Positions 1 to 16,924 of a stretch of DNA of 64,000 bases are shown here, piece by piece (position 1 is the stretch's first letter; every line of letters begins with the position of its first letter). Below the pieces are notes generated by a model. That model made no database searches, was not told the origin of the DNA, and worked only from the letters and a program-made list of their open reading frames with translations. The translations under genes and the position numbers were made by a program. This DNA comes from an uncultured Desulfobacter sp. (lineage in GTDB: Bacteria; Desulfobacterota; Desulfobacteria; Desulfobacterales; Desulfobacteraceae). Location of the stretch: positions 128,001 through 192,000 of the forward strand of contig OY762069.1 of NCBI GenBank assembly GCA_963665095.1, given 5' to 3'.

Positions 1-1389
1 ATAGAGGAAAAACATGCCAAGGCACAGCTTCGCTGGCTTCCGGCCGACGGCCTGGAGATCAATTTCCAGGGCGGTGTTGATCAGAGCCGCAACGGCGTCG
101 GCCCCATGGTTTCCTCGATGGATGAGGTGGTCTATCACGAGTACAGGAACCCCGATAACAAGAACGACGCCGATGCCTTTGATTCCGCGTTGAACATCAA
201 CTATTCTCTTGGGTTTGGCGAGTTCATATCCACAACGACCTACAGGAAAAAGAAATCTGATTTCAAAGAGTATTTAACGGACTTGAGTTCGGGACGGGTT
301 GCCGATCTGGAAAACCGGACCTTTACCCAGGAATTCCGACTGCAGTCTCCTGACAAGGCTTCCGGTCTGAAATGGACGCTCGGCTTGTATTATGCCGACG
401 AAAACGTCATGGCTAATGAATTCGGACGGACCATCAACATGAACAGCGTGCTGGGCTACTCATTAAGAAGGGACTGGCCCTACGATCAGGACGAAACCAC
501 CATGGCCGCTTTTGGACAGGCCACCATCCCCCTCTTTGCCAATGTCAACTTTCTGGCGGGCCTGCGATATGAAAAAGATAAAAAAGCCTTGAACTATACG
601 GGGGTGACGACCCGAATGGACACGAACCAGCGGGTGTCGCAGGCAGAATGGTACGATGAAGATGACTGGGATGCCCTGCTGCCCAAAGGCGTTCTCTCCT
701 GGAACGTCACCCCGGATGCCATGCTTTATGCCAGTGTGGCTAAGGGATATCTTGCCGGCGGATACAATAAAATGACAACCGGTACGGATATAGAGGACGC
801 CAAGTTTGACGAGGAGACTTCCATTAACTATGAACTTGGCGCCAAGACAACCAGGCTGGACAACAGGCTTTCCCTGAATGCCTGCCTTTTTTATGTCGAC
901 ATTGAGGATATGCATGTTTACAGCCAGCCGATGCCCGGCGTCATGATCGCGTCCAATGCGGCAAAGGCCCATAGCCAAGGAATTGAACTGGAAGCCAGGG
1001 CAAGGCCCTTTGAGGGGATGGACATTAACGCGTCATTTGCCTGGACCCAAGCGGAGTTTGACGAGTATGGCGCCTTTACCGGAAAGACCCCGACCAGTAC
1101 GCCTGATTATTCCTTTTCCATGAGCGCCCAATACCGCCATTCCACAGGGGTGTATATCCGCTGTGAGATGCGGGGCTTCGGCAAAATCTACTATGACGAG
1201 GCCAATACAATTGAAAGGGATCACCTGGAATTGTTCAACGCCAAAGTGGGGTATGAACGGGACAGCTTTGATTTTTATGTATACGTAAACAACTTGACGG
1301 ATGAAAAATATTTTTCAGGCATGTCACCCCAATGCATCATGGTTGGGGCACCGCGCACAATGGGGGTGATGACGTCCATACGTTTCTGA
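1..1389 (+). CDS. TonB-dependent receptor, C-terminal part (5'-partial)
   Basis: Frame is open from base 1 (IEEKHAKAQLRW...). Beta-barrel motifs QEFRLQS, GYLAGG, NYELGAK, VNNLTDEKY and a terminal Phe. Confidence 0.93.
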   Translation: MEEKHAKAQLRWLPADGLEINFQGGVDQSRNGVGPMVSSMDEVVYHEYRNPDNKNDADAFDSALNINYSLGFGEFISTTTYRKKKSDFKEYLTDLSSGRVADLENRTFTQEFRLQSPDKASGLKWTLGLYYADENVMANEFGRTINMNSVLGYSLRRDWPYDQDETTMAAFGQATIPLFANVNFLAGLRYEKDKKALNYTGVTTRMDTNQRVSQAEWYDEDDWDALLPKGVLSWNVTPDAMLYASVAKGYLAGGYNKMTTGTDIEDAKFDEETSINYELGAKTTRLDNRLSLNACLFYVDIEDMHVYSQPMPGVMIASNAAKAHSQGIELEARARPFEGMDINASFAWTQAEFDEYGAFTGKTPTSTPDYSFSMSAQYRHSTGVYIRCEMRGFGKIYYDEANTIERDHLELFNAKVGYERDSFDFYVYVNNLTDEKYFSGMSPQCIMVGAPRTMGVMTSIRF

Positions 1390-1606
1390 CCCCTGATGCT
1401 TTTGTTTTGACGCTGCCCAATGGGTGACCGCAAGGCCCTAAAGGCAGCCCCAAAACCATTTCCGGCAAAATTCACCGGCCAGGCCAGGGATACATCCAAT
1501 GCCCAGGCTACAAGAGGAGACGCCCCCTCCCGAAGGAAGTTATTATGACGGGTTTTAAGACGATGTTTATCCTGCCTGGCCCATCTCGCGGTTTTCGATG
1601 TACTCA

Positions 1607-1795
1607 TCATAGGACATGAGTCGGTCGACGATTCCGCCGGACGTTGAGCGTATTGGAAGGTACAACGTGGGTGAGTCGCACATGAAAACTTGGTGCGAGT
1701 GGATTGTTGAATACGATAGGATTGTCCAAAATTTGATGGGCAGCTCGCATCATCGCAACTCTATTGGCCGTAAGACTGGGGTTGTTCAGTTTCAT
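1607..1795 (-). pseudogene. N-terminal fragment of a leucine-carboxyl-methyltransferase-like SAM-dependent methyltransferase
   Basis: PSLTANRVAMMRAAHQILDNPIVFNNPLA matches the family N-terminus. Similarity stops after ~35 aa. Start overlaps the upstream stop (ATGA) and has a GGAGG RBS. Confidence 0.6.
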
Positions 1796-2658
1796 ACATC
1801 CTCCAAGGATTTGGGTTGTATACCAAACTTGTTGTCTGATTTCCCCGTTATTGACTCACTGAAGTCTGTGATAAAATGACCAAATTCAATGCCATAAATT
1901 TTCTTAAAAATTTTATCATGGTCACTGATAGTTGTGAGTTCTTTCATATATGATAAAAATTTTTCCTTTCCAAATTTTTCAATTAGATAATCAACTATGC
2001 ACGCAAACTCGGAATACATGAATGTAATTCTGTACTGAACATCAAGCTTGATCCGGTCCTCGTTCTTAGTCTTGAAATATTCAGGAGGCATAAAATTGCC
2101 TTTTTGAATATAATCATAGGTTTCCTTTTTTGAAGGATACCATGATGTTCCCATTTGATTGGCACTATAAACAGCGATCCCCTCAAGCAACCATTCCGGG
2201 TAATTATAAGCTCTTGAAATACCGGAATGCTGATGAAGCAAACAATGGGATAACTCATGTGTAAGATAAATTTCTAATGAAATTTCGCCATTTTCAGCTT
2301 CTTTTAATGCCCATGGAGAAATAATTAAATCTCCATTATAAAAAGCACAAAACCGCGCTTTTGATATTGAACGTTTATAGTAACTGTTTTTGTCCTTAAA
2401 AATGAATATTCTTGGTTTCTTTAAAAACTTCCATTCATGAAACTTTTCAACGTTAGGGATTAAAGAATCAATTATTTTTAAATCAGGGTATTCTGCACCT
2501 TTTTGAACATAAACAATTGTGTTTGTTAATTCCTTTTTAGAAAACCCGATTATGAGAGGGGAATAAGGGAATAGCTTACCAAATAGAAAACTATAGACAA
2601 CTAGTCCCAAGATAAGAATGAAGCCAATTGCGATTGAATATTTCAGTTTATTCTTCAT
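1792..2658 (-). CDS. Membrane-anchored gluzincin-type (peptidase MA-like) zinc metallopeptidase
   Basis: N-terminal TM helix, HELSH (HExxH) and downstream PEWLLEGIA. AT-rich; starts just after an attC-like site. Confidence 0.7.
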   Translation of the reverse strand: MKNKLKYSIAIGFILILGLVVYSFLFGKLFPYSPLIIGFSKKELTNTIVYVQKGAEYPDLKIIDSLIPNVEKFHEWKFLKKPRIFIFKDKNSYYKRSISKARFCAFYNGDLIISPWALKEAENGEISLEIYLTHELSHCLLHQHSGISRAYNYPEWLLEGIAVYSANQMGTSWYPSKKETYDYIQKGNFMPPEYFKTKNEDRIKLDVQYRITFMYSEFACIVDYLIEKFGKEKFLSYMKELTTISDHDKIFKKIYGIEFGHFITDFSESITGKSDNKFGIQPKSLEDV

Positions 2659-2684
2659 TTCAAAAACATCAGTTTTTTATTCTG

Positions 2685-2733
2685 GTATAACGCAAAAATA
2701 ACCGGCATCATCCGGTTCATTTTTTTGTTGAGT
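2685..2733 (-). other. attC-like recombination site (short, 49 bp)
   Basis: Minus strand ACTCAAC-AAAAAAATGAACCGG-ATGATG-CCGGTTATTTTTGC-GTTATAC: R'' ending AAC, paired L boxes with an extrahelical G, R' starting GTT. Confidence 0.75.
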
Positions 2734-2759
2734 TCCAATGTTGTATCACTCAGGAATAG

Positions 2760-3671
2760 TTATCCAAACAGTACATTTTCCAATTTGTGAGTTGCTTTGA
2801 GCCGTTTGCGCGGTGCCATCCTTTCCAAATTCAGCAGCTTCCACTGGATGGCAGGCAACATCTGCACATCGGGCAGTGGAAATTTTTCCCAATCCGCATT
2901 TCCCTGCTTGAGATCAAGCAAAAAGCGCCTGTCATCGTTATTCAGGGCTTTATGGATTTGAATAACCAGTTTTGGCAAGGTATTCTGCAACCGCTCAAGA
3001 TTTACTGGTTCATATGCCATACCCTCAAACTCTGTTCTGTACAACGGAGAAATATCCTGAGATTTGGGTGCCAAAAGTTCAGCCATAGGCCGGTTATGGC
3101 CCATGAGATAGACCATGAACGCGTTTTTTAAAGTCTGGGTAATCCCCTCATGCTGGAGAAGCCAGTAGGTATCATATAGGTCTCTGGGGTGCTGCCGATC
3201 TAAAGTTGCGCAGATTTTTCCGGCAAAAAGATCTTCAAAACTCATCAAAGTCATGCTGGCAAATCCAAAGGTATTCTCTGCATTTTCTGATATTCTGCAC
3301 GTCTGGGACGGGTAGACGCTGCCCCGCAGAACCGGTGTTACTTCAATTTTGACATGAGTTCCACCTTGTTGCACCAGCAGTTTATACCGCTTATCTGTAC
3401 CTTTCAATTTCACTGCCTTTACCTGAGCCCGTGGAATTCGTTTTTGAATATCCTCAATGATATTTCCTAGTGCTGTATCAATTCCCTCAAGGCTTTGGTC
3501 ACGCCCTTCTACCGGCAGATAGGCCAGATCAATATCCACAGATAAACGTGGCATATCTCTTACGAACAAATTTATGGCTGTGCCGCCTTTTAATGCGAAA
3601 CAGGTCTGCTTTTCCACAAAGGGTAAAAGATTCACGAGCAGGCGCACTTGATCAGAATAGGGAGTTTTCAT
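2760..3671 (-). CDS. abiEii: AbiEii/AbiGii nucleotidyltransferase toxin (type IV TA)
   Basis: LKGGTAINLF, RLSVDIDL and GKICATLDRQHPRDLYD motifs; overlaps the upstream antitoxin gene. Confidence 0.93.
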   Translation of the reverse strand: MKTPYSDQVRLLVNLLPFVEKQTCFALKGGTAINLFVRDMPRLSVDIDLAYLPVEGRDQSLEGIDTALGNIIEDIQKRIPRAQVKAVKLKGTDKRYKLLVQQGGTHVKIEVTPVLRGSVYPSQTCRISENAENTFGFASMTLMSFEDLFAGKICATLDRQHPRDLYDTYWLLQHEGITQTLKNAFMVYLMGHNRPMAELLAPKSQDISPLYRTEFEGMAYEPVNLERLQNTLPKLVIQIHKALNNDDRRFLLDLKQGNADWEKFPLPDVQMLPAIQWKLLNLERMAPRKRLKATHKLENVLFG

Positions 3672-4434
3672 TTTCTTTGACCATTTGTCTCGGAATCGTT
3701 ATCTGATAGGCAGCATCAAACACACCGCCCTTGACCAGCATGCGCTTGCCTCGGCCCAAATCAATACCTTTGGTTTCCAGCTCTTTGTGCCAGGAATGAT
3801 CATGGCGATCACTAAACCATAAAAACAGCCGTTTTGCTTTCACCTGTTTGCAGCGTGTCAACAACTCGCCAAGCAGTTTCGGCCTTAAATTAACGGCGCC
3901 TTCAAAAAACGTATCAGCTACTGAAAAATCAGCCGTTTCCCGTACATCTGCTAATAATTCTAGCAGGGCAAGTTCCGGGGTACTAAAGGGAATCGACCAA
4001 TCCCAGGGCCCATAGGGCCGGGTGGTTAAGCCAGGTTTGGGAAGTTCTTCAAACAGTCGTTTGATATGGATTTCAAATCTGAAAGAATCTGAGAAAATGT
4101 GGGTCCAATCCGGTATTTTCCCAGTGCTGTACAGGCCAATCCGTTGCGTATCACCCAACGGCAGATAGTGGGCCAAACCCTGCAATTCAAGGGCACTGCG
4201 GCCGCCTACGTGTACTGCATATCCCATTTCATTCAGGGAAAAGACCACATGCTCCCACTTAAGTGGGGGGCCTGGACGTCTATATATGCCATGACTTAAG
4301 GCCACGAGCTTACCAGCCCGTAAGGCGTAGTCCACCCTGGGCCTGTTAAACCCTCGTTCCTTTAACCAGGTACGATTCACTAATTGCCCATCCGGGAGGT
4401 GTTGCTCAAGTCTTTTTATATTTTTAGGTGGCAT
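3652..4434 (-). CDS. abiEi: AbiEi family antitoxin (type IV TA)
   Basis: N-terminal wHTH (GIYRRPG), VHVGGRSALELQGLAHY, STPELALLELL, KAKRLFLWF, LGRGKR motifs. Confidence 0.9.
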   Translation of the reverse strand: MPPKNIKRLEQHLPDGQLVNRTWLKERGFNRPRVDYALRAGKLVALSHGIYRRPGPPLKWEHVVFSLNEMGYAVHVGGRSALELQGLAHYLPLGDTQRIGLYSTGKIPDWTHIFSDSFRFEIHIKRLFEELPKPGLTTRPYGPWDWSIPFSTPELALLELLADVRETADFSVADTFFEGAVNLRPKLLGELLTRCKQVKAKRLFLWFSDRHDHSWHKELETKGIDLGRGKRMLVKGGVFDAAYQITIPRQMVKENENSLF

Positions 4435-4493
4435 GGTTTATAAATTCTCTTAAATGCATATTGTATACATGCATTTAAAGAAAATTTCAAACC
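4435..4493. promoter_or_regulatory. Long inverted-repeat operator upstream of abiEi (probable autorepression site)
   Basis: GGTTTATAAATTCTCTTAAATGCAT...ATGCATTTAAAGAAAATTTCAAACC abuts the abiEi ATG. AbiEi antitoxins are known to bind inverted repeats in their own promoters. Confidence 0.65.
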
Positions 4494-4630
4494 GCTTGTT
4501 TGAAATTTATATGAATTGCATAAATATGTAACGCAATTCATTTCTTTTATAAACTATGAATTGATTTCAATCGCGGTCCTGACCTGCATCAAGTTTAGTG
4601 TCACTATCATTTTATCTCATATCGTCATAT

Positions 4631-5176
4631 CGGGTCGGACCAAGCTATATCCTTTATTCATAGGCATCTTGCTGCCAAATCACGGTGTTATTAGGGGCTA
4701 TATTGCTGTTTTTGCCCCTTTTCGATAATTTTACGACCTTTTGCCCTCAAACCCAATTGAGACAGAATATCATTTATGAAATTGTTACTACCAACTGCCA
4801 GGCTTTCGGTTCATCTTTCCTTTCTCTTGATAATATCAGCTTTTAATGCACTATCAATCCAATTCTTGTGAGCTGTTTGAAAAGCATTAAAAGTATCAAA
4901 TATAATCAAGGACGACAAGGTGATATCTTTTCTTGGATTGATAAAGCCACTGCATCCATCGGTGTCGATCCTTAGCGAATTTGAATAGAAATTCCCTTTT
5001 ATGACAACAATGGGTTAAGTGCCAGATGTGTCCTGGAATATAATGTCTATTCGCTCTTGCCATTTTTATTCCTATATTGCTCTTTTTGGCCCCCAAAAAT
5101 CAATTATAGACCCGTTTTAGAGGGTATTTATTAAGTTATTTCCTTAATTGACAGCCTTTTTGCTCGGTCCGACCCG
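4631..5176 (-). mobile_element. Internally deleted RAYT/IS200-like (Y1 HUH transposase) element bounded by 15-bp inverted repeats
   Basis: CGGGTCGGACCAAGC (4631-4645) versus the reverse complement of 5162-5176, CGGGTCGGACCGAGC (14/15 match). Transposase remnants lie inside. Confidence 0.75.
4720..5063 (-). pseudogene. REP-associated tyrosine transposase (RAYT) remnant
   Basis: N-terminus MARANRHYIPGHIWHLTHCCHKREFL stops before the HUH motif. It is joined to a C-terminal piece AHKNWIDSAL...R*TESLAVGSNNFI...LGLRAKGRKI with an in-frame stop. Confidence 0.8.
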
Positions 5177-5261
5177 CTTCCGCTAGTTTAAATTTTCATT
5201 AACCAGACATCTTCGAAAAAGCCGCGCAGTAAGCCCGGTCGGGTTCATTGGTTTGTTTGCT
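5177..5261 (-). other. Truncated attC-like site (left arm only)
   Basis: Minus strand AGCAAAC-AAACCAATGAACCCGACC begins 12 bp after the stop of 5274-5756. The right arm breaks at GCGGGT, where the RAYT element end starts. Confidence 0.55.
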
Positions 5262-5273
5262 CATTGCTTATTG

Positions 5274-5756
5274 TTAACCAACTGGAATTCCGGTATTTTT
5301 ATCATAGAGCAAAATCATATTGACTATTTCATTTTCTCGATTCCATTGATGATAAAACCAATTATTACCTGATGACTCTATCAGCTCTCGTAGCTGATTT
5401 TGAATATTCAACTCCCCATCGTATCGTTCAAACAATGTTGGGAAATTATCCTGATTAGGATTTCTTGTGTGAATATAGATTGCATCTTGACTTGAATCAT
5501 CAATATCTATGATACAAAAAGTTTGAAAATCTTCTTTTCTATCTGATAATTTTCTTTTCAGAAACTCAAAGCGCCTCAATAGGGCTTTTAAGTGTGGCTC
5601 CCTTGCTTTCCATGATTTTTTCCCAAGACCATACCAATCTGGATGATCATGCCAGAAATCAAACCAAGAATTAAATGCAAGCCGGTCAAAATATTTTTCA
5701 AGATCACCATTCAACAGCGTGTTGAAGTATCTTCTTTGTCCTCGGATTTTTCTCAT
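5274..5756 (-). CDS. Hypothetical cassette protein
   Basis: 160-aa AT-rich ORF filling the space between two attC-like sites. Distinctive WFDFWHDHPDWYG segment; no function recognised. Confidence 0.75.
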   Translation of the reverse strand: MRKIRGQRRYFNTLLNGDLEKYFDRLAFNSWFDFWHDHPDWYGLGKKSWKAREPHLKALLRRFEFLKRKLSDRKEDFQTFCIIDIDDSSQDAIYIHTRNPNQDNFPTLFERYDGELNIQNQLRELIESSGNNWFYHQWNRENEIVNMILLYDKNTGIPVG

Positions 5757-5788
5757 ATCTTGTATAGTTCATTTCATTGTTTTTGTAC

Positions 5789-5877
5789 GCTAAACGTTGA
5801 GTTAAGCGGAAAAATTATAACCCAAAAACAACGTAAAACCCGGCGGGTACTTTTCCGTCTTCAACTCTTTGTTACAT
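5789..5877 (-). other. attC recombination site (89 bp)
   Basis: Minus strand ATGTAAC-AAAGAGTTGAAGACGGAAAA...TTTTCCGCTTAACTCAAC-GTTTAGC. Arms pair with two extrahelical bases (G, A). Confidence 0.85.
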
Positions 5878-7421
5878 TAACCGGGTCGAAGCCTCGCAGT
5901 TGATTTCTTGGGTAAAAGCAGGGGAATCCTTATTTTCAAACTTAGATTTAACAGCACAGATTCTAAAATTTGCCTGGTAAAATTGAGTGAGCATTAAGAT
6001 TCTTCCTTCTACTTTATCCGGTCAGGCTTGAAAAAGAGCCGAAAAACCTGGTACCGGAGCGGATTGCCGATACGAGTCCCTGACAGGGAACTGCCTATTT
6101 TGATATCGGTAATTGTTTCCAAAGTAAAGCTTTTTATGGTTCCCCTGATTTAGCCGGAATTTGCTTGGCCTTGGTTTTTGGTAAGTCGTCTTTCACCACG
6201 TTGCCATGACCGTCCAGCACCAGGATCGTTATCATGTTCCCTTTGCCGCAGGCCGGGCATTGAGGCGTCTGTTCTTTCAGGGGTTCAGGATCAGGGGTAT
6301 CCCGGTCATTCAATGCCTGGCGTATTTCCGATATATTTCGTCCTGCCTGCCCGTTGGCCAGAAACCCATAATATCTGATCCGATGAAAGTGTTTTGGAAG
6401 AACATGCAAAAGGAAACGATCAATGAAGCTCATTACCGGTAAAGAAGTTGTTTCCCACTTGGATTTATTCCGGGTGTTTTTAAACCAGAACTCCACAGTC
6501 TCGTTGTTAACGGATATAATCCTGTTGTTGCTGATGGCTGTTGAATGGGTGTATCTACCGATATATTTAACGACTTCGGCTGGACCTGAGAATGGTGGTT
6601 TGGAATATACCACCCAGTCTTTTGGAGCGGTATGGTACAGCCATTGCCTGAATGCGCAGGGTTTTGAAAGATGAGCCAGTTCATCCGGGATGTTTAATCG
6701 TCCTCGACCGTGGGCTGCAATAAGGCCGCTAAGGAACTTTGCCCTGAATACATTTGAAAGCGCTTTGACCGGAAACAGGAATGTTGAGCTGTACTTGGGC
6801 TCCACCCATTCCCCATAAGTGTTTATTCCGCCTGCAGTGACAATGAAATGGATGTGGGGATGCAGCCAGAGTTTGCCGCCCCAGGTGTGGAGGATACCGT
6901 AGAACCCGATCTTGGCTCCAAGACGCTTTGGATTCTCCCCGAATTCCAGCAGGGTCTGGGAGGCGCTTTCAAACAACAGGTCATACATTACCCGCCGGTT
7001 GAACCGGCACAAAGGGTTGAAGATATCCGGCAATGTGAAAACGCAGTGGTGATAGGACACCGGAAGCAGATCGTTGATCCTGGCCGTCACCCATCTGTGA
7101 CGGGCGATATTGTTTCAACCCGGACAATGGCGGTTCCGGCAGGAGTTGTATCCTTTTTCAAGGTGGCCGCATGTGTCGCATAGCTCCCAGTGGGTGCCAA
7201 ATTCTCCGCGTCGGCAGTGCTCGATATCGTACATAACCTTGTGTTGTCTGGGGTGCAGGCGGTGTGCTGATCTGAAGGGAGGACCGTATTTTCTAAATAT
7301 ATCTCCGACGCTTGGACCGGAAAAGTTTGCACCATAGATTATGAAGTCCTTATTTTATAGGCGTTTCGAGCTCTGTAGTTGGCTTCAAGATGTTGCATTC
7401 ACCGTCCAGGTTTAATGTAAT
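5871..7421 (-). mobile_element. IS91-family-like element occupying a cassette position between two attC sites
   Basis: Contains a Y2 transposase. Ends ATTACATTAAACCTGGACG (minus strand from 7421) and GTTACATTAACCGGGTCG (plus strand from 5871) are imperfect inverted repeats overlapping the attC R boxes. Confidence 0.7.
6134..7335 (-). pseudogene. IS91-family (Y2) rolling-circle transposase, disrupted
   Basis: Zn domain CDTCG...YNSCRNRHCPG*, HCVFTLP, LHTWG, HPHIH, YIGRY, HRIRYYGFLAN. In-frame TGA at 7117-7115. The RBS-linked ATG at 7335 is out of frame with the Zn domain. Confidence 0.88.
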
Positions 7422-7462
7422 GTGAAAATCACCGGTTTATCCGGTTCATTTTTTTGTTGGAA
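7415..7462 (-). other. attC-like site (short, 48 bp; R' GTT changed to ATT)
   Basis: Minus strand TTCCAAC-AAAAAAATGAACCGG-ATAAA-CCGGTGATTTTCAC-ATTACAT; near copy of the 2685-2733 site. Confidence 0.7.
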
Positions 7463-7474
7463 TTAAGCATCGTG

Positions 7475-7552
7475 CTCCCGGAATTTGCTGGCGAAAAGCA
7501 ATGTCCTGTCAATTACATATATTGTCCCCGGAACTCATAGCCCCCGGAACTC
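7475..7552 (+). repeat. Three short direct repeats with core CCCGGAAYT (REP-like)
   Basis: CTCCCGGAATT at 7475, TGTCCCCGGAACTC at 7523, CCCCCGGAACTC at 7541. Confidence 0.5.
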
Positions 7553-7793
7553 AAAATTTTTAAACCGTTGGTGCTGCCAAAAGACGATACTCAAGGTTCG
7601 CGCCTCCTTTACTAATCATCTTCTAACAATAGATCTTCATTTTGGTATTATATTATTCCTATAGATGCCCATAACTATAACCGCCATGGGATGATCTGGC
7701 CTTGCCAACATCCGGAATCACCCCTGATAAAATATAAAAGCAACTGAATAGCTTATTGAAATTTATATATAAAACCTGCCAAAGGAGAAACCA

Positions 7794-9494
7794 ATGGAAC
7801 GCTGTTTTAAACCTGGGATAATTGTATTGGCCTGGGTGTTGATTTTTATAGTTGCCGTTCTGGCACCGGGCTGCTCAGACAATTCCGGGCAAAATAATCA
7901 GCAGGGCTCCGGCACCTTAAATGATTCGTCCGGAAACTTTGTTGTCTATGCCGGTTCGGAAATGAGCGGTCTGGAGCCCATGATCAAAAAATGGGCCCGA
8001 AAACAGGGGGTGAACATTGAGATTCATTATCAGGGATCCATAGACATGATGCGCATGATGACAGACGGTACCGCCACTGTGGCTGATGCATTCTGGCCGG
8101 CCCATACCATCTGGTTTATCCTGGGCGACACCGGGCATGTGGTGAAAAATAAACGCAGCATCATGGTCTCCCCCATCGTGGCCGGCTTAAAGAAGCATGT
8201 GGTCAAGCAGCTGGGCTGGGACAAAACAAGCCCCACCATGGAGCAGTTCCTGGCTGCCGCAAAACAAGGCAGGTTTAAATACGGTAAAACCAGCTCGACC
8301 CAGTCCAACTCCGGTGCGCTCTTCCACCTGGCAGCCTGGTGGGCATTTGCCGGGAAACCCGAAACCTGGACCATGGATCTGGTGAAAAATCCTGACATCC
8401 AGGCCCGGGTCAAGGAGATGGAGTCCACAGTGGCGGCCACGTCTGGCAGCTCGGGATGGCTGAAATCAAAAATTGTGGAGAACGCCGGCAAACTGGACGG
8501 CATGATCAACTATGAAGCCATGGTCAGTGAAGCCAATATCGGCTGGACCACAATTGATAAACATACCGGAAAAGAAGTCCGCCACCCGGGCCTGATTAAA
8601 AAAGGGCTTGAGCCGTTGCATGTGGTCTACATCTGTGATGCCACCATGATGGCGGACCACCCTTTAGGCTATGTGGATAAAGGCGATGCTGCAAAGGAAA
8701 AGATATTCAATGACCTGCAGGCCTATCTGCTCTCAGCAGATGCCCAGAAAGAGATGATCACCAAGGGCAGGCGGAACAGACTGCTGGCCATGGACCCCTC
8801 CCTGGCAGATAAAAAGGCGTTTAATCCGGACCACGGGTTTGATGTAAAGAGGGTGATCGCCCCGATTCAGCCGCCCCGGGAAGATGTGCTTACTGCCATT
8901 CTGGACCTTTACCAGGAAGAGGTCAGAAAGCCGTCTGCCACGGTGTGGGTCATTGACGATTCAGGCTCCATGTATAACAACGGCGGCAAAAATGCGGTCC
9001 AGCAGGCCATGTCCATTCTGCTTACCCCGGACAAGGCAAAAGCGTATAAACTCCAGCCCACTGCCAAGGATATTCATGTGGTGCTCCCCTTTAGTGATGC
9101 CCCGGGAAGACCGCTCACCGCAGAAGGCAACGACCCGGCTGTTCTGGGCTCCCTGATGAATAAGGTTGCCCTCATGCACCTTGGATCAGGCACGGATATG
9201 TACGCAGGAGTTGTGGCAGCCCTGGAATATATCAAACAGAACGAGAATTTGATCAAGGACCATTTCCCGGCCATTGCCGTGCTCTCTGACGGGCAGTCCA
9301 AAGGCAGCCTTGACAGTGTCAGGCAGGCGGTTGCACGCCTAAACCTTGAAGATATCCCCATTTTTACACTCAGTTTCGGGGACAAGGCAGACGAACGCCA
9401 GCTCAAGGAGCTTGCAACCACCTTTGGCGGAAGATATTTTTCAGGACAACATAATGTCGCCAATGCATTCAGGAAAATGAAAGGCTATAATTAG
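7794..9494 (+). CDS. Lipoprotein with a solute-binding (PBP-II) domain and a C-terminal vWA domain
   Basis: Signal peptide with lipobox-like LAPGC. PBP motifs SPIV, TQSNSG, SSGWL, INYEA, ADHPL. vWA MIDAS DDSGSM...GTDMY...LSDG. Confidence 0.85.
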   Translation: MERCFKPGIIVLAWVLIFIVAVLAPGCSDNSGQNNQQGSGTLNDSSGNFVVYAGSEMSGLEPMIKKWARKQGVNIEIHYQGSIDMMRMMTDGTATVADAFWPAHTIWFILGDTGHVVKNKRSIMVSPIVAGLKKHVVKQLGWDKTSPTMEQFLAAAKQGRFKYGKTSSTQSNSGALFHLAAWWAFAGKPETWTMDLVKNPDIQARVKEMESTVAATSGSSGWLKSKIVENAGKLDGMINYEAMVSEANIGWTTIDKHTGKEVRHPGLIKKGLEPLHVVYICDATMMADHPLGYVDKGDAAKEKIFNDLQAYLLSADAQKEMITKGRRNRLLAMDPSLADKKAFNPDHGFDVKRVIAPIQPPREDVLTAILDLYQEEVRKPSATVWVIDDSGSMYNNGGKNAVQQAMSILLTPDKAKAYKLQPTAKDIHVVLPFSDAPGRPLTAEGNDPAVLGSLMNKVALMHLGSGTDMYAGVVAALEYIKQNENLIKDHFPAIAVLSDGQSKGSLDSVRQAVARLNLEDIPIFTLSFGDKADERQLKELATTFGGRYFSGQHNVANAFRKMKGYN

Positions 9495-9507
9495 GAGTGA
9501 CAACCTT

Positions 9508-10131
9508 ATGCAGGTAAACTGGAAGGTTAATATGGTGATCAGCGCCCTGGTGACGGTGGGCGCTTATTTTGCAGCAGATACGATTCTTGGTTTCAAATTG
9601 TGGGTGGATGTGGTCATCGCGCTTTTTTTCGGCGGCATTGTCAATCAGCTGATTTTAAGGGATAAAAAAGAGGATTCTGAAATTGAGGTGGTGCCCGGCC
9701 TTTCCCGGCAGGAGTTAAAGCAAACCCTGGTGCTTGGCCGGGACTGGACAAAAAAGCTGGAAAAGCTTGCCAAACAGCTGGAGCGGCCCCGCCCCGGTAT
9801 TTCAGAAGCGGTCCGGGACATTTCCGAAACCGTGGCCACGCTGTTTGCAAACTTTGAAAAAGACCCCAAAGATCTAACCACCAACAATGCCAGACGTCTG
9901 ATCAGTGACCACCTGCCCCGGGCCTATAAATTTTTGTCTGCCTATGCTGATCTTGCCACTGCCGGGCGGCTCACGGAGAATGAGACGGCAAAGTTAGCTG
10001 CCATGGAAAATAGAATCACCACCATTAAAGAGAGCTTCTCCCGGCATCTGGAAGCGTTTAGAAGCAACGATTTCACCCAGCTTCAGGTGGAGGGACAAAG
10101 CATGGAAACAATTTATAACCTGGATATATAA
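9508..10131 (+). CDS. XpaC-like (5-bromo-4-chloroindolyl phosphate hydrolysis family) membrane protein
   Basis: Two N-terminal TM helices followed by helical FEKDPKDL...ARRL...HLP...Y segment; operon context with TelA. Confidence 0.75.
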   Translation: MQVNWKVNMVISALVTVGAYFAADTILGFKLWVDVVIALFFGGIVNQLILRDKKEDSEIEVVPGLSRQELKQTLVLGRDWTKKLEKLAKQLERPRPGISEAVRDISETVATLFANFEKDPKDLTTNNARRLISDHLPRAYKFLSAYADLATAGRLTENETAKLAAMENRITTIKESFSRHLEAFRSNDFTQLQVEGQSMETIYNLDI

Positions 10132-10266
10132 CAACCGATACATATAACAGCCACGGGCTGACTTGACATATCTTCTGCCAGGCACAGCCCACAACAAAGA
10201 TAAAAAGTTTCTCAACGACTTAACGAGACTTTCTTATAAAACTTCTGATTTTGGAGATCACAGCCA

Positions 10267-11367
10267 ATGAATAAAAAAAGCATGCTCGGCATTGTCATCG
10301 CCCTTGTGGCCATCGGGGCCATTGCCGTATTTCAGTTTCTTGGGGACAGTGACATGCTCAAAGAGGTCAAGCAACCTGACGCCATCACCGTGAAAGGGTA
10401 TGTGGGTGGTGAGAAGATGGGCTTTCTGGCCAATGAAGAGGTCATAAAAATTCTGAATAAAAAATACCGCATCACCATTGACGCCCACAAAAAAGGTAGT
10501 GTCGAAATGGTCAAGGATCCGGTCTACCGCACCCCGGACACCGACTTTTTCTGGCCCTCCAACTTTGTCTGTGTGGAGTGGTTCAACCAGACCGGCGGAT
10601 CATCCAAGGGGGCGGACGTTATTTTTAACTCTCCCATTGTCCTGTACTGCCCGGCCAAGGTGGCGGAAGCCCTGATTAAAATCGGGGTGGTCAGTATCCA
10701 GGAGAATGTCCATTATATTGTTCATTTTCCAAAACTTGTGGACCTGGCCGTCACCGGCACAAAGTGGAAGGATATTGATCTGCCCATGATCCCGGGCAGC
10801 ATCAAGATTTTGTCCACAGACCCGTTTGAAAGCAACTCCGGAAATATTTTCTTTGGCCTTTTGGCCAATGTACTGTATGGGGATGTGGTCAGTGCCGGCA
10901 CCCTTAACACGATTCTGCCTAAAATCAAATCCTATTACGACCGCATGGGATTTCAGCAGAAGTCCTCCGGCGATATTTTTGATCTGTTTATCTCCAACCC
11001 CTATACCTACCCGATACTGGTGGGATATGAAAATCAGCTCATTGAATATGCCATTCAGAACAGCGATGACTACAGTATCGATTTTCTGAAAAAAAATATC
11101 AGAACCCTTTATCCCCAGCCCACGGTGTGGTCCTCCCATCCGCTGATTGCGGTGAACGATAAAGGACTGCGGCTCATGGAGGCGCTCAAGGATCCAAAGA
11201 TTCAAAAGATCGCCTGGGAAAAGCACGGGTTCAGGTCCTCGGTCAAAGGGGTGAGAAACGATCCCACCAAACACAAGGTCGCAGGTCTTCCCGAGGTGAT
11301 CACCTCCATTATCCAGATGCCGTCGGCAAAGACCATGGACATGATTTTAGATACGATTAAGCAATAA
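10267..11367 (+). CDS. Membrane-anchored solute-binding-fold protein (paralog of the vWA lipoprotein's N-domain)
   Basis: N-terminal TM; GGEK, FNSPIV, TDPFESNSG, SSG, GYENQL, YPQPTVWSSHPL, HGFR motifs. Confidence 0.8.
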   Translation: MNKKSMLGIVIALVAIGAIAVFQFLGDSDMLKEVKQPDAITVKGYVGGEKMGFLANEEVIKILNKKYRITIDAHKKGSVEMVKDPVYRTPDTDFFWPSNFVCVEWFNQTGGSSKGADVIFNSPIVLYCPAKVAEALIKIGVVSIQENVHYIVHFPKLVDLAVTGTKWKDIDLPMIPGSIKILSTDPFESNSGNIFFGLLANVLYGDVVSAGTLNTILPKIKSYYDRMGFQQKSSGDIFDLFISNPYTYPILVGYENQLIEYAIQNSDDYSIDFLKKNIRTLYPQPTVWSSHPLIAVNDKGLRLMEALKDPKIQKIAWEKHGFRSSVKGVRNDPTKHKVAGLPEVITSIIQMPSAKTMDMILDTIKQ

Positions 11368-11392
11368 AAAAATATTTTAAGGAGGACCACCC

Positions 11393-12631
11393 ATGTCAGA
11401 CAATGACTTCAACCTGCTTGACGAGATTAATGCCAGGAAAACCGCAACGGCCACACCCGAGCCGTCAAATGATCAAAAAGCATCCCACATCCCTGACCAG
11501 GCCTTGGCCAACCTGCCGGCCACGGTCTCGTTGTCCATGCTGGAACCCCAGCCCAGCGTTTTAACCTATGACCAGCTGGACGAAGCCCAGCAGGCCACAG
11601 CCCATGGATACGCAGGCAGCGTGGATTTTGTGGACCGCAACAGTATCCGGTTTTACGGGTATAATGAAGAGAAGGCCATGTCCGACTTTCTTGATGAACT
11701 CCTAGACGGCATCAAGGCCAAGGATTCGGATCTGGCAGGACACCTGCTCATCTCCTTGAACCGCAATATTGACGACCTTAAACTGCAAAAATTCCAGGAC
11801 ATCCTTGAAGGCAAAGAGGGCGGGGGATTTTTTGGCATGTTCACCAGCAAGGCCAAGGAACTTGGCAAGATGATCCAGTTTCTGGTGGACCGGCAGAAAG
11901 ATGTCCGTACCCAGTTCGACAAGATGCAGATGCAGGCCGAAGGCGAGCGCAATACCCTGATTGAGGACAACACCAAATACCAGCTGCTGTTGAACCGAAC
12001 CATTGACCAAATTTCCCTGGTCATGCCCATCATTGTGGGTGGGCAGATTGCCTTAAAACGCGGGCTCAACGAGTTTACCGAACTCAAAGAACAGGCCGTA
12101 CAACAACCGGCCAATACCCTGCTGGCCTCCCAGGTCCAGGATTTTGCCAACAGTCTGGAGGCGTTCAACCACCGTCTGGTCAACCTGCAGATCTCCTTTA
12201 CCAAGCGGGCTGCCACCACCATCCCCAAAATCCGTGCTATCCAGGATGCCGTCAACATTGAGATGGACAACCTGGTAGATAAGATCATCTTTGTGATCCC
12301 GGCCTTGAAAGAGGCGGTAATCGACATCGTCACAACCGCCCGTCTGCGTAAACTGCAGCTGGGCCGCAAGGATGAGGAAGCGATGATGAAGCGGGTGGAG
12401 GAACTCCGCAACCGCACCATGAAAGACGCTATCCTGGAAGCCAAACGTTCGGAAGGAGATTACGCCACCAAGATCGCCCTGCTGGTCTCCATGAAAGACA
12501 ACCTGGTGCAGATCTGCGATGAGGGCAAAAAGATCGTGGAAGAGAACCGCCAGAAACGGGTGGAAGTGATTGAAAGTCTTAAGTCCGTCAAACAGGAGAT
12601 GGAAACCGCACTGCGGGAGAGTGCGGGTTAA
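11393..12631 (+). CDS. Toxic anion resistance protein (TelA/KlaA/YaaN family)
   Basis: Coiled-coil rich; SIRFYG, GGFFG, RLVNL, IPKIRAIQ, IPAL motifs; XpaC neighbour. Confidence 0.75.
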   Translation: MSDNDFNLLDEINARKTATATPEPSNDQKASHIPDQALANLPATVSLSMLEPQPSVLTYDQLDEAQQATAHGYAGSVDFVDRNSIRFYGYNEEKAMSDFLDELLDGIKAKDSDLAGHLLISLNRNIDDLKLQKFQDILEGKEGGGFFGMFTSKAKELGKMIQFLVDRQKDVRTQFDKMQMQAEGERNTLIEDNTKYQLLLNRTIDQISLVMPIIVGGQIALKRGLNEFTELKEQAVQQPANTLLASQVQDFANSLEAFNHRLVNLQISFTKRAATTIPKIRAIQDAVNIEMDNLVDKIIFVIPALKEAVIDIVTTARLRKLQLGRKDEEAMMKRVEELRNRTMKDAILEAKRSEGDYATKIALLVSMKDNLVQICDEGKKIVEENRQKRVEVIESLKSVKQEMETALRESAG

Positions 12632-12710
12632 GTCCAGGTCCTGATCCTGATATTCTTATTTTATCCAAAAAATCACCCGATCCCCGGTCAGGGGATCAAT
12701 TAAAAAAAAA

Positions 12711-12837
12711 AGTGTTTGGGTGAAACGTTGCCCAAAGGCAAGGCAAAGAAAAATCTGAAACCGAGGCGTGCTAAAATACGTAAGGGTTTCAGATTTTTCT
12801 GTAACGCCGCAGATGGGTGCCTTTTAGCCCAAACACT
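12711..12837. repeat. Palindromic MITE/REP-like intergenic element
   Basis: Terminal IR AGTGTTTGGG/CCCAAACACT plus internal IR AGAAAAATCTGAAACC/GGTTTCAGATTTTTCT. No ORF; lies between convergent genes. Confidence 0.7.
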
Positions 12838-12842
12838 GAATA

Positions 12843-13235
12843 TTAGGCTACGACTGAATATTCCGCATCTATAATATCATCATCCTGGGACGCTTTACTG
12901 CCTGCGGTTCCACCGGGCCTGAAGCCCCGCCTGGGCCCTGCTTCCGGGCATATGCCGCCTGGCTCATGGTGCTTACAGCCTGGTTCAGGTGATCCGCCGC
13001 CGTGTTGAACCGGTTCACATTCTCTGACTTGACGGCCTCTTTCAATTCGTTGACCAGACCTTCCAGGCGGCTGCGGGTATCCGCATCCACAGCGATCTGT
13101 GATCCTGACATTACTTTCTCAGTCTGGTATATCAACTGGTCGGCCTGGTTCCTGGCAGTGATCAGCACCTTTTTGCACTTGTCCTCTTCGGCATGAAGTT
13201 CGGCATCTTTTACCAGGGCATCGATATCCTCTTCA
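12843..13235 (-). pseudogene. dnaK: C-terminal fragment of DnaK (Hsp70), frameshifted
   Basis: EEDIDALVKDAELHAEEDK...RNQADQLIYQTEK. The tail DDDIIDAEYSVVA* is in another frame. No ATPase domain. Confidence 0.85.
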
Positions 13236-13306
13236 CCTGCTTTGGGAGACACTTGATAGACATCCCTATCACTCTGCTATTCCTCAAAAATTCTAATTCT
13301 TCGAGA

Positions 13307-13390
13307 TTTTAACATTGAGTTAAGCGGCTGCCGAACAGCCAAAAAAATGCCTCCGACGGTTGATGCCCGTCTTCAACTCATTTGTTAAAT
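13307..13390 (-). other. attC recombination site (84 bp)
   Basis: Minus strand ATTTAAC-AAATGAGTTGAAGACGG...CCGCTTAACTCAAT-GTTAAAA; same family as 5789-5877. Confidence 0.82.
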
Positions 13391-13480
13391 TAGCCCATCA
13401 CCGTTTAAGCTTGGCACCTGGTTTGCATTATAGAAAAAGTAGATTCTACCTCCTCGTCCGCCCGAAGGGCTTAATTTAAC
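13384..13480 (-). mobile_element. 97-bp gene-less cassette / miniature element with terminal inverted repeats
   Basis: Ends GTTAAATTAGCCCATC (plus strand from 13384) and GTTAAATTAAGCCCTTC (minus strand from 13480). Bounded by two attC sites; no credible ORF. Confidence 0.6.
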
Positions 13481-13523
13481 GCAAACATCTGCGGCTTGTC
13501 CGTCAGCATGTTTGTTGTTAAAT
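13474..13523 (-). other. attC-like site (short, 50 bp)
   Basis: Minus strand ATTTAAC-AACAAACATGCTGACGG-ACAAG-CCGCAGATGTTTGC-GTTAAAT; extrahelical G and A; fully complementary R boxes. Confidence 0.82.
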
Positions 13524-13556
13524 TTTTTCACGATGGTTTGGATTTTTTGAATCTGA

Positions 13557-14006
13557 TTATATTTCTTTTGAAATAGCTTGAAATAGTTTAAGTTTTAGTA
13601 CTTCTGAATCCATCTCTTCGTTAAGAAATGCCGTTAAAATCTCATGTAATAAGTCTTTACCAATTTTTCCATCGGCCACATGATAACTGATGTTTTCCAT
13701 TTCCCGCAAAAATTTCTCAGCACAATAAAGATAACCGTTTAGCAACAAAAATTGGGTACACAATACGATCGCAATTCGTTTGTTTCCATCAAGAAAACAG
13801 TGAAATTTACAAGTGCTAAAAAACAAATGGGTTAATTTATCAACAAATGTTGGATAATAGAGATCATTTTGAATATTCCCTAAAACGCCCTCAAGTTTGC
13901 CAAGCTCAAGATGGCCGACAGCTCCACCTCCACTTTTTTCAACAGTTTTTTCATGAATCGTAATAGCCTGTTCAATCGTAATATATTGGATAGACATGCA
14001 GTTCAC
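13557..14006 (-). CDS. Fic/Doc (death-on-curing) family protein
   Basis: HCFLDGNKR Fic/Doc motif and YYPTFVDK; coupled to the upstream gene by a 4-bp overlap. Confidence 0.9.
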   Translation of the reverse strand: MNCMSIQYITIEQAITIHEKTVEKSGGGAVGHLELGKLEGVLGNIQNDLYYPTFVDKLTHLFFSTCKFHCFLDGNKRIAIVLCTQFLLLNGYLYCAEKFLREMENISYHVADGKIGKDLLHEILTAFLNEEMDSEVLKLKLFQAISKEI

Positions 14007-15049
14007 CTATCCTTAAGTCGTTTCAAAACATCTTTGGATTCTTCCAATCTTTCTTCTAATTCCTTACTCTTTTCTCCTAAAAATCGCTCAAACTCTTCTG
14101 CCTGGATTGGAGTGATATATTTCTCTAATTGCAGGTGCAATGCATCCCTGAAAGCAAGGTCTCTGCTTGCCATTTGATGGCGAGCTCTTTCAAGAAGAGG
14201 TTTCCATAGGGGAAGTGATTCAAATTTTTTAAATATTTTATCTACTTCAAATGAGGTAAGTTTTCTGCCGATTTTATTATACTCAGATTTTAATTCCTGG
14301 CTAAAACCATATTCATAAGAAGCTACAAGGTCAAGAATCTCAGAATAAAATGTATCCCGGAGTTTTTCTTTTGCATTCAATTTTAAGATTTTTCGATATT
14401 CTTTTGCTTTTTCTTTAAAAATGCTGACATAAATTTTATCCGTATAAAGTGGATACTTAAAATTACCCATGTTGACGTAATCTTTAAGGGCATCTGTAAA
14501 TCCTTTCCGGTAATTTTCTTCATGAAAATATGCCAGAATAAATTTTTCATCCCTTTGGTTGATATATTTTGTACCGCCACCCGTTTTTTGATTTATCGTA
14601 TCGATAACGATATCCAAAATTGTGCTACGCAACAATTGTGCTCTTTGGCTTTCAACCATTATCATGGCCAGATTTAAGAAGGCCCTGAACCCAAAAGCCC
14701 CTAATTGCGGGCTTTTGGCGATGTTCCCGAAATCTGTTTCGGGAACATCCAGTGCAGAAATAGATTCTTTCAATATTTTCAATCTATTACCCTTGATAAC
14801 CTCGTAACCACTTTGGCTCAATTCCGTTTCATGGCTTTTTAAATAATTTTCAATGGTTCGTGTCGTCACCTCGAAAAATGAAGCCACTTGTTCTTTGAGA
14901 ACAACCGTTTTTCCCTCAAAAGGAATTCCTTTGATATGAACAGCCTTTTCAATTTCCTTAATGGCATAGGGGTTGTTCAAAATATTCTGACGATCAACCG
15001 TTGAAACAGTTAGGTCTTTACTTTCAGAAGGTGATTTTTGTTCATTCAT
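14003..15049 (-). CDS. Putative DNA-binding protein paired with the Doc toxin
   Basis: 348-aa AT-rich ORF with an HTH-like segment (KEQVASFFEVTTRTIENYL), GGGTKYINQRD and a C-terminal coiled coil. Confidence 0.7.
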   Translation of the reverse strand: MNEQKSPSESKDLTVSTVDRQNILNNPYAIKEIEKAVHIKGIPFEGKTVVLKEQVASFFEVTTRTIENYLKSHETELSQSGYEVIKGNRLKILKESISALDVPETDFGNIAKSPQLGAFGFRAFLNLAMIMVESQRAQLLRSTILDIVIDTINQKTGGGTKYINQRDEKFILAYFHEENYRKGFTDALKDYVNMGNFKYPLYTDKIYVSIFKEKAKEYRKILKLNAKEKLRDTFYSEILDLVASYEYGFSQELKSEYNKIGRKLTSFEVDKIFKKFESLPLWKPLLERARHQMASRDLAFRDALHLQLEKYITPIQAEEFERFLGEKSKELEERLEESKDVLKRLKDR

Positions 15050-15170
15050 TTTAAACTCTCTTTAAAAATTTGACTGCCTCTAATTTTTAAACTGTAACAT
15101 TTTATCAGGTAATTGCCCACCGGTGACCGACTGAACGGTTCGCTGAAAGGTTTCGAAGCGCCAGCGATGG

Positions 15171-15650
15171 TTAAAAGTCATTCCCAAGGGATGCCCAGTT
15201 TTCTGAAAAATATGTCTCAATTCCTTTCCCAGGGTTATATCGGGGATAAATTTGTTCGAATTCAGACCTTGCATTTGCATAGGATTGGTCACTTATAGTT
15301 GATAAACCCTTTGCCATAAAAAGCAATGCCAGTAAAGGTGCTCTTGATTCTCCTTGGTTGCAATGAATAAGCAATTTCCTGCCAGCATCCCAGTGTTTGC
15401 CAGAAAAAACCATAAAGCTCGTAAAGAGTGGGGGCATGAATAGCGGAACTGGAGGATCTATCATGTTGAGATAAAGGTCAAATTCTTTTTCAAAGACTAA
15501 ATAATTGGGATGTGTTTTGGGCAAACTCCCTCTATAACCTACGATTCGTTGATGGCATGGACTTTTACACGCGTGAACGACCACTAATTCATCTGTCCCA
15601 TTGGTGCAAGATACCAACTGGACCGCAGTCTTTGCAGTTTTGCGCAGCAA
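15171..15650 (-). CDS. Dual-specificity/tyrosine phosphatase-like protein, N-terminus probably truncated
   Basis: HCNQGESR (HCxxGxxR) P-loop and VVHACK motif. The TTG start and first residues look unrelated to the family. Confidence 0.7.
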   Translation of the reverse strand: MLRKTAKTAVQLVSCTNGTDELVVVHACKSPCHQRIVGYRGSLPKTHPNYLVFEKEFDLYLNMIDPPVPLFMPPLFTSFMVFSGKHWDAGRKLLIHCNQGESRAPLLALLFMAKGLSTISDQSYANARSEFEQIYPRYNPGKGIETYFSENWASLGNDF

Positions 15651-15907
15651 ATTTAGAAGTTGTACAAACGGATTTCAGCGAACGACAGGCAGGTGGTCTG
15701 GAACGGGTTGAACCGCAGATTTGCATTCAACTTTATTGAAGATTAACCATATTTTTACATGCGATTGCCCTGGGGTAAACAAAAAAACGCTTTTGACAAA
15801 AAAAATGGACGTTTTTGATATCCGGGTCTGATCCTCAGGGCCTATAGTCATTGTAACATTTATTATTAGTCAGATATGACAAGACACTTGAGTGAAACTA
15901 TAATGCC

Positions 15908-16924
15908 ATGAAAAAAATACCTGAAATCCGCCATTCATGGGCACGGCTCTATTCGCTTCTGAGAATGGACCCGGCCGGGGATGTCCTGGTAACGGCTGTT
16001 AAACAAAAAATATTTGACCATCTTAGGGAACCTGAGCCTGCGGACCGGATTGCCCGGCTGTTGAACTCCCATCCCGGCAATACCAGTGTTTTTCTCAATG
16101 CACTGGCCGGTGTGGGGGTCATTCACAAAAAAAACGGGCAGTTTTCCAACACGCCTGAAAGTGATGCCTTTCTGGTCAGTACAAGCCCGTCGTACCTGGG
16201 GCCGTTTTTCTGCCGGGTCCGGAATTTTTTCACACGGTGCCGGTCCCCGGAACATATAGAATCGTTGCTCATGAACGGCCCGGCAAATAGCATGGCCACC
16301 AGGGATGATTCCGAGTGGGTGGCCTATACCCGGCAGGCCTCGGCCCACCAGTTTTGCGGCCCTGCACAGAGAACGGCAGAATTTCTGGCTTCCCTGCCTG
16401 AATTTCCGGGCATGAAGAAAATGCTTGATCTCGGGGGCGGGGCGGGGTTTTACACCATGTTAACGGTCATGGCCCATAAAACCATGACAGGTGTTGTTTT
16501 TGATCTTCCCCCGGTTGTTGCGGTCGCCCGTGAATTCATCAGGGAGTACGGGTTTTCAGACCGGGTATCCACCATGGGAGGCGATTACACAAAAGACCCC
16601 TTGGGCGATTCCTATGACCTGGTTTATGCCGGGGGCACGTTCAACTTTGCAAAGGCCCATATTGATACGGTCTTTCAAAAAATATATGCAGCCCTTAACC
16701 CTGGGGGTGTTTTTATATCCCAGCATGGCTCAGTTTCCAAAGACCGGAATGAGCCAGGCGATCAGACCCTGGATTTTTTGTTTGATGAACTTAGCGGGAT
16801 GGATATCTTTTTCCCCAAAGGCATGATTGCCAAAGCAATGACCCGGGCAGGTTTCAAGGCCGTCACCAGCACAGTCCAAAAAAGTGAGTTTGGTGGCGCG
16901 GAAATTGACATTGCAAGAAAATAG
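15908..16924 (+). CDS. SAM-dependent O-methyltransferase (dimerisation HTH plus methyltransferase)
   Basis: MLDLGGGAG, VVFDLPPV, GGDY, ALNPGG. Confidence 0.9.
   Translation: MKKIPEIRHSWARLYSLLRMDPAGDVLVTAVKQKIFDHLREPEPADRIARLLNSHPGNTSVFLNALAGVGVIHKKNGQFSNTPESDAFLVSTSPSYLGPFFCRVRNFFTRCRSPEHIESLLMNGPANSMATRDDSEWVAYTRQASAHQFCGPAQRTAEFLASLPEFPGMKKMLDLGGGAGFYTMLTVMAHKTMTGVVFDLPPVVAVAREFIREYGFSDRVSTMGGDYTKDPLGDSYDLVYAGGTFNFAKAHIDTVFQKIYAALNPGGVFISQHGSVSKDRNEPGDQTLDFLFDELSGMDIFFPKGMIAKAMTRAGFKAVTSTVQKSEFGGAEIDIARK

Follow-up and report, generated by a model that had tools for sequence, protein, structure and literature searches.

We found that a recombinase-less lineage of IS91 elements is built as an integron gene cassette, and that this architecture is real and conserved. 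The example studied here lies on the minus strand of a 64,000-nucleotide stretch of an uncultured Desulfobacter sp. genome (the window). It has the anatomy of a cassette, with an attC of its own, cassette orientation and junctions at attC and attI crossover sites, and it occurs in multiple copies and belongs to a clade without recombinases. From sequence comparisons we propose that this lineage of a recombinase-carrying IS91 subgroup lost its recombinase and may now move as a cassette, with the integron integrase IntI integrating it and its own Y2 transposase supplying single strands, a reading that we hold at somewhat better than even.

A first-pass annotation of this DNA had placed the element at 5871..7421. 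Profile matches and an attC scan agreed with it that an IS91-family Y2 transposase lies between two attC-type hairpins, the end sequences it quoted are present (left 7421-7403, right ending at 5871, minus strand), and the unit contains no recombinase gene. The right limit was misplaced. The host genome holds four copies with >99% identity (A, the window copy, and B, C and D), all of which run through the same 89-bp attC and diverge directly after its G/TT, the slash marking the crossover point. The mobile unit is therefore 7420-5795 (minus strand), 1626 bp in the window and 1807 bp in the undeleted copy B. Copies A, B and C have the left end in common, while copy D is 5'-truncated. The features of the window element and its borders are as follows.

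7415..7462, minus strand: upstream (target) attC, 48 bp (attC scan score 7.0)
5795..7420, minus strand: whole mobile unit (cassette), its right G/TT common to four copies and its left to three
7403..7421, minus strand: left end, consisting of the R' box and outer motif (sequence and end comparison)
7317..7320, minus strand: deletion scar, with 181 bp lost between 4-nt repeats (as aligned with copies B and C)
6134..7345, minus strand: frame of the IS91-family Y2 (HUH) transposase, with its start deleted and one in-frame TGA (translation; PF14319, PF04986 and NF033538)
7115..7117, minus strand: in-frame TGA, in all four copies, at a Cys of the zinc-binding domain that is invariant in alignment A1
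7084..7103, minus strand: SECIS-shaped 7-bp stem with a G-containing loop, 11 nt past the TGA (geometry)
6848..6862, minus strand: HUH motif HPHIH, intact (alignment)
6551..6565, minus strand: Y-x-x-x-Y motif YIGRY, intact (alignment), which we take to be the catalytic tyrosine pair
5907..5917, minus strand: conserved ori-like motif, present in clade right ends and, as we judge it, resembling the oriIS of IS91/ISCR
5871..5888, minus strand: right inner end, with the outer CCGG-TT motif and R'' box (sequence and clade comparison)
5789..5877, minus strand: the element's own attC, 89 bp (scan score 13)
5274..5794, minus strand: next cassette, a 160-aa ORF with no Pfam match, outside the element and different among the four copies

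The element's own attC has its R'' box at 5877-5871, L'' at 5865-5858, L' at 5807-5801, two extrahelical bases (by eye) and its crossover after G 5795. Sites were detected with an anchored arm-pairing scan, which produced 0 background matches at a score of at least 10.5 in 60 kb of strand sequence and misses some sites, such as a truncated one near 5190-5280. Unconstrained folding of the top strand did not yield the attC structure, and an Rfam scan of window positions 1-16000 returned one sub-threshold match only, elsewhere than the element. The R' box of the target attC is completed by the element, with A in place of the usual G; the same site family recurs at 2691-2733 and elsewhere in the host genome with GTT.

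Beyond the G/TT junctions the four copies share no flank, and we saw no sign of the mobilisation of neighbouring cassettes that had been suggested. In the arrays of the host genome, 17 of 25 attC-adjacent segments were single-copy. The eight multi-copy segments comprised the window element (4), recombinase-carrying IS91 elements (3) and one 7-copy repeat, making seven of the eight IS91-type. In sequencing run X6 the element's attC is followed by a cassette different from that in the window, and in run X15 three contigs with different flanks leave the left junction. The recombinase-less element is present in multiple copies in genomes G000 (the host), G033 and G042.

Other mobile sequences were noted around the array. 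A decayed Y1 transposase remnant with palindromic ends and no Pfam match, presumably RAYT-like, occupies window 4600-5200 and truncates the attC near 5190-5280; an end sequence similar to that of the remnant interrupts the relative L280 directly after the Cys codon considered below. An AbiEi/AbiEii type IV toxin-antitoxin pair lies within the array at window 2760-4434, followed by the short attC at 2691-2733. Group II intron ends were seen at attC sites adjoining copies of the element (L031:9660-9800, near copy B, and run X6 at window position 5789).

The gene matches PF14319, PF04986 and, at 397 bits, NF033538, identifying it as an IS91-family Y2 transposase. Relative to copy B, the window copy lacks 181 bp at 7317-7320; copy C has 70 bp more than the window copy, and the longer form appears as loose ends in sequencing runs X4 and X6. 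The deletion took the true transposase ATG and a ~110-nt hairpin. The ATG previously taken as the start (7335, ~85 bp inside the left end) does not share the transposase reading frame, and with its start codon lost the window copy is probably a passenger. Across the clade the transposase is under purifying selection, with dN/dS of 0.09-0.14 in 11 pairs of relatives (downstream of the TGA position); many relatives are broken, and premature stops are common. A PDB sequence search with alignment A1 gave no match, and a promoter scan of copy B gave 2 matches against 2.4 expected, none on the sense strand.

The ~110-nt hairpin, upstream of the transposase and ~95 nt inside the left end, was seen in close relatives only (copy B, L031:9440-9560; also L203-L205), among which it is conserved, and is absent from some relatives. 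A hairpin preceding the recombinase gene in distantly related elements from this genus is 92% identical to it, and it was lost stepwise in copies C and A.

To place the element among its relatives, we kept at least 238 distinct transposase loci, after dropping matches shorter than 150 aa. The matches listed were mostly recombinase-carrying elements: among the 238 loci listed, 182 had an upstream recombinase, 40 had none and 16 had too little upstream DNA. A FastTree phylogeny, built from the 226 listed loci whose alignment covered at least 250 residues, put the window element in a clade of 39 tips (support 0.989; a few loci counted twice), of which 32 lacked a recombinase, none carried one and 7 were short, with <450 bp of upstream DNA. 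Among the matches listed, the range of the clade is described for this phylum. Its nearest relatives in the tree are recombinase-carrying IS91 elements, and two recombinase-less tips outside the clade show apparent recombinase remnants (by eye). As the tree was midpoint-rooted without a canonical IS91 outgroup, the proposed loss of the recombinase rests on shared ends.

These relatives have their ends at the crossover sites of integrons. Of 43 clade right ends, 39 contain an attC of 75-129 bp. The first-pass annotation had suggested testing whether homologous ends lie at attC sites; among 36 left junctions this held for 18, each preceded by an attC oriented as in a cassette (14 recognized by scan and 4 by eye), and a further 5 lie at attI beside intI, but the remaining 13 are simple sites. 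The attI junctions adjoin a divergent intI in L006, L012, L013 and L230, with L202 added by likeness to the upstream region of the host intI; one attI assignment was made by eye. The junction search demanded G or A as the first base, and under a looser left-end pattern that base was G in 28 of 31 cases and A in three (window 7421, L226 and L228). The 13 simple sites have no nearby intI, and several adjoin housekeeping genes. Six of the loci (L271, L274, L280, L283, L285 and L287) have simple ACTT/GTT sites with no intI within ~8 kb. Since the ACTT/GTT core also lies beside intI in L230, these six simple sites may be orphan attI.

An IntI above the cut-off was found in 27 of 34 carrier genomes and in 71 of 121 genomes of the class, a mild excess; some of the seven carrier genomes without one are fragmented, and two have broken genes. 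The host genome has an intact intI at C1:910169-911113, and none was found near the window's array. A second, interrupted host intI (C1:3348672-3354683) lies near the array holding copy C. Among single loci, L316:1501-1850 may be a non-autonomous derivative: in this short element the left end typical of the clade precedes repeated hairpins, and there is no transposase. In L002, 5 nt of R'' are duplicated, and in L003 iterated short repeats lie past the attC.

The host genome also carries five recombinase+Y2 elements of two lineages (C1:925600-928500, 3325500-3328300, 920300-923400, 3315300-3318600 and 3892500-3895450); in one of these a group II intron occupies the left end. A recombinase from such co-resident elements could integrate the window element in trans. 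Their outer end motifs are alike, the basal subclade has the same left end, and such recombinases are the closest homologues of IntI according to the accessible text of 10.1101/542381. However, three of the five sit backwards at intact attC R'' boxes and have end hairpins with a different spacer, whereas copies of the window clade face forwards, at R' or attI, and their spacers are of the cassette kind (5/5 or 5/6). We consider integration in trans quite unlikely.

We also compared the two ends of the element, which had been described as ~18 bp of inverted repeat, well beyond a 7-bp R'/R'' baseline. The symmetry itself was confirmed, as 9 nt without mismatch (10 were the first base G) or 15 of 19 positions with one gap, but its excess over the ordinary proved modest. 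Nineteen ordinary cassettes from similar arrays gave runs of 7-10 nt (mean 8.8), so that the window copy's run of 10 falls within their range and its gapped score (12) alone exceeds it. When G was assumed as the first base, perfect runs of 8-14 nt and a mean anchored score of 11.5 were obtained for 14 distinct end pairs from the main subclade, in a comparison where kin are not independent and control cassettes were required to match 7/7. Left and right ends co-vary across the clade. Given that homologous ends lie at crossover sites and that their symmetry is conserved, with both sides changing together, we saw neither the unrelated end positions nor the unconserved symmetry that the first-pass annotation had named as counting against its idea.

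The outer end motif is present also in the recombinase-carrying elements of the host genome, and the basal subclade retains their left end. The symmetry is thus real and modest, and was probably inherited. The ends, which had been called transposon-type terminal inverted repeats, are R boxes with this short outer motif. Terminal inverted repeats of the DDE type were rejected, as the enzyme is HUH and the symmetry is mostly R box. Nor was a lack of any oriIS-like end supported: the ori-like motif lies 35-45 nt inside the attC and is conserved in the clade, with a related motif in 72 of 135 recombinase-carrying loci. Both the ori-like and outer end motifs are kept over 45-100% protein identity, and ordinary cassettes lack them. 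The earlier proposal that the element targets or mimics attC was right in that its ends fall at integron crossover sites, but it is better described as a cassette with a complete attC of its own.

These features bear on whether the element is a true IS91-type transposon, in which Y2 alone carries out excision and strand transfer at integron sites, the attC serving as a recognition hairpin or mimic. The HUH and tyrosine motifs are intact, target duplication is absent, some junction bases are odd, and CTTG, given as an IS91 target in the accessible text of PMC13181058, is the sequence at 7 of 36 left junctions. That CTTG, however, stands at the 5' end of the sense strand, whereas with ori at the right the IS91 rules would call for the other end and the other strand. 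In addition, L''/L' pairing and the extrahelical bases are conserved against a freely variable attC loop, as IntI requires, and an IS91-type terIS was not identified in the element. Movement by Y2 alone appears very unlikely to us.

We hypothesize instead that two enzymes share the cycle. The host IntI would integrate the element through its folded bottom-strand attC. The Y2 transposase would nick near the right end and displace the bottom strand, the strand used by both IS91 and IntI. This displacement could release copy-out circles more often than for an ordinary cassette, and a circle joining both ends would have an R stem longer by a few pairs. That IntI integrates the element is suggested by its cassette geometry and orientation and by its presence at attI, while the conserved transposase and cis motifs, the multi-copy spread and the T-runs described below argue for an active role of Y2. 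The model combines insertion of IS91 from a bottom-strand circle (PMC13181058), binding of the bottom attC strand by IntI (PMC3458562) and efficient excision by IntI from ssDNA (PMC12614218), as stated in the accessible parts of these sources. That the result is a self-amplifying cassette, in which the rolling-circle enzyme provides the required single strand and the host integrase inserts it, joining two unrelated recombination systems in one cycle, has in our view a little under an even chance.

Several observations weigh against two enzymes. Neither a clean empty site nor a tandem copy was found among the loci compared and the contigs of four sequencing runs, nor was a circle junction in those runs, where the use of contigs only means that this is not evidence of absence. 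The seven carrier genomes without IntI above the cut-off also count against the model. Rolling from a nick at the ori-like motif would proceed in the direction opposite to the element's attC; the model therefore requires nicking at the edge of the attC or on the excised circle. If the TGA in all four copies is a stop, they spread without an enzyme of their own. Finally, IntI alone can duplicate cassettes, its recombination being replicative (PMC3458562 and PMC8024014, accessible text). This last property would also suit a passive cassette, whose transposase gene is plain cargo moved and duplicated by IntI alone, with the enzyme acting elsewhere or kept for other reasons. The spread of four copies despite the TGA, the many broken relatives and the overlap of end symmetry with the ordinary range are in keeping with passive movement, but a dN/dS of ~0.1, the conserved cis motifs, the T-run junctions and the multi-copy state in G000, G033 and G042, while the host's ordinary cassettes are single-copy, argue against it. 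We regard passive movement as unlikely.

The junctions themselves provided a further indication for the two-enzyme model. Past the element's attC, 11 of 25 right junctions have at least 4 T's (up to 13), compared to 1 of 80 other attCs; an earlier control count of T-runs after other attCs gave 0 of 74. That the T's are additional bases is evident in L006 and L201, where the following cassette has an R'' of its own. Ten of the 11 T-run junctions follow an AAC/GTT palindrome. Only four other attCs end in this way and all have the element inserted, so the palindrome alone may cause the extra T's. The extra T's suggest something beyond routine IntI exchange, and the footprint offers a readout of which enzyme acts at the junction.

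The in-frame TGA at 7117-7115, on which the first-pass annotation did not remark, stands at an otherwise invariant Cys; the corresponding codon is TGC or TGT in 225 of 232 parsed loci. If it encodes selenocysteine, undeleted copies would yield a full-length transposase and its output would depend on selenium, a possibility that we take seriously but place just short of probable. Bacterial selenoproteins are recognized by an in-frame TGA aligned to Cys in at least two sequences, Sec machinery and a SECIS after the UGA (PMC1976440, accessible text). We found a TGA aligned to Cys together with host Sec machinery in two genomes, G000 and G451. The host genome has selA and a TGA-containing selD, and the hairpin past the TGA (11-nt spacer, 7-bp stem, G-loop) matches those of 4 of the 6 host Sec genes compared, namely selD and 3 of 5 fdh-type genes; in a random background, 83 of 5000 TGAs pass the same hairpin test. 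G451, which belongs to another genus (85% identity, not sister), has selA, a TGA at the same codon and a 7/7 stem with a compensatory pair. The stem is mismatched in most close Cys relatives, and synonymous changes make up 6 of the 10 found downstream of the codon in TGA-bearing alleles (p ~0.02 against an assumed neutral share of 0.24).

Other results count against selenocysteine. A competing fold is 1.5 kcal/mol more stable than the SECIS-shaped hairpin (0.57 versus 0.42), the G451 copy is otherwise dead (a TAG and a deletion), and G274 has a 7/7 stem with TGC. A pattern search of 401 genomes of the class found no further transposase TGA (7 other matches, none a transposase). Allele linkage in run X6 comes from overlapping contigs, and recombination with Cys alleles is possible. 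In addition, a structural zinc ligand is an unusual site for selenocysteine.

The TGA would otherwise be a stop, arising by chance or at a damage hot spot where the codon context mimics the element's R'' end, and we think this marginally probable. Premature stops are frequent in the clade, the codon context with TGT resembles the R'' box, and 1 of ~14 breakpoints in broken relatives falls 2 nt past the codon (L280). However, by eye the codon region shows no L''/L' pairing, two stem-perfecting changes in the lineage alter amino acids, and there is the synonymous excess downstream of the TGA. A protein search for products ending at the TGA gave three candidates and was uninformative, and our literature search found no selenocysteine transposase. 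That the element is a self-amplifying cassette and also has a selenoprotein transposase in two lineages, both together, is doubtful.

With known systems, the cassette model fares as follows. Canonical IS91 elements have oriIS next to a tetranucleotide target, terIS with a subterminal palindrome and cleavage tetranucleotide, and orf121 (PMC13181058, accessible text). Like the IS91 family (IS91, IS801, IS1294 and IS1294b; ISCR), the element has a Y2 HUH transposase with a zinc-binding domain, no target duplication at the junctions compared and an ori-like motif downstream. Unlike them, it does not end at oriIS next to CTTG, GTTC or GTCC but extends ~110 nt past the ori-like motif into a complete attC; its ends are integron R boxes, its junction is the G/TT of attC or attI, and neither terIS nor orf121 was identified in it, although the ~110-nt hairpin near the left end of close relatives was noted in looking for a terIS. 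In the freely accessible main-text literature searched, we found one passing mention of an IS91-like element adjoining attC (ISShvi3, in the accessible text of PMC9229058), and IS lists in supplements or ISfinder/TnPedia may already hold members of the clade.

Compared with integron gene cassettes (attC, IntI; attG secondary sites), the likeness extends to one gene with an attC, G/TT junctions, orientation, and occurrence in arrays and at attI. The attC has R''-L''/L'-R' boxes and extrahelical bases, and its 89 bp fall within the natural range of 57-141 bp (PMC3458562, accessible text). In the four copies the boundaries are G/TT and the attC travels with the gene, and 23 of 36 junctions (the other 13 being simple sites) have cassette orientation at attC R' or attI. 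The differences lie in the cargo, a conserved rolling-circle transposase with cis motifs, in the multi-copy state and in the extra right-junction T's. Cassettes are viewed as passive cargo; one that drives its own copying, if this holds, would represent a new kind of integron parasite and a natural example of single strands being supplied to IntI by a HUH enzyme.

IS1111-attC elements and group IIC-attC introns interrupt the host attC using their own enzymes, whereas the attC of the window element arrives with it and the target attC stays intact. All are selfish and live at attC sites, as those two groups are presented in the accessible text of PMC9229058.

The closest comparison is with recombinase-carrying IS91 relatives, which share the outer end motifs, the ori-like motif, the left end of the basal subclade and the 5' hairpin at 92% identity. 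The upstream tyrosine recombinase that defines them was found in 0 of the 39 clade tips, counting the seven short ones, and the end hairpin of the window element has cassette attC geometry; it sits forwards at R' or attI, in contrast to the backward position at R'' seen for recombinase-carrying elements in the host genome. Because it departs from the canonical IS91 end rule and lacks its relatives' recombinase, we file it under neither and describe it as a cassette carrying an IS91 enzyme. Between the two systems, whose recombinases are close homologues (10.1101/542381, accessible text), a series runs from elements that carry a recombinase and a hairpin of their own to recombinase-less ones with a cassette-type attC, and it offers a testable route for the origin of attC cassettes.
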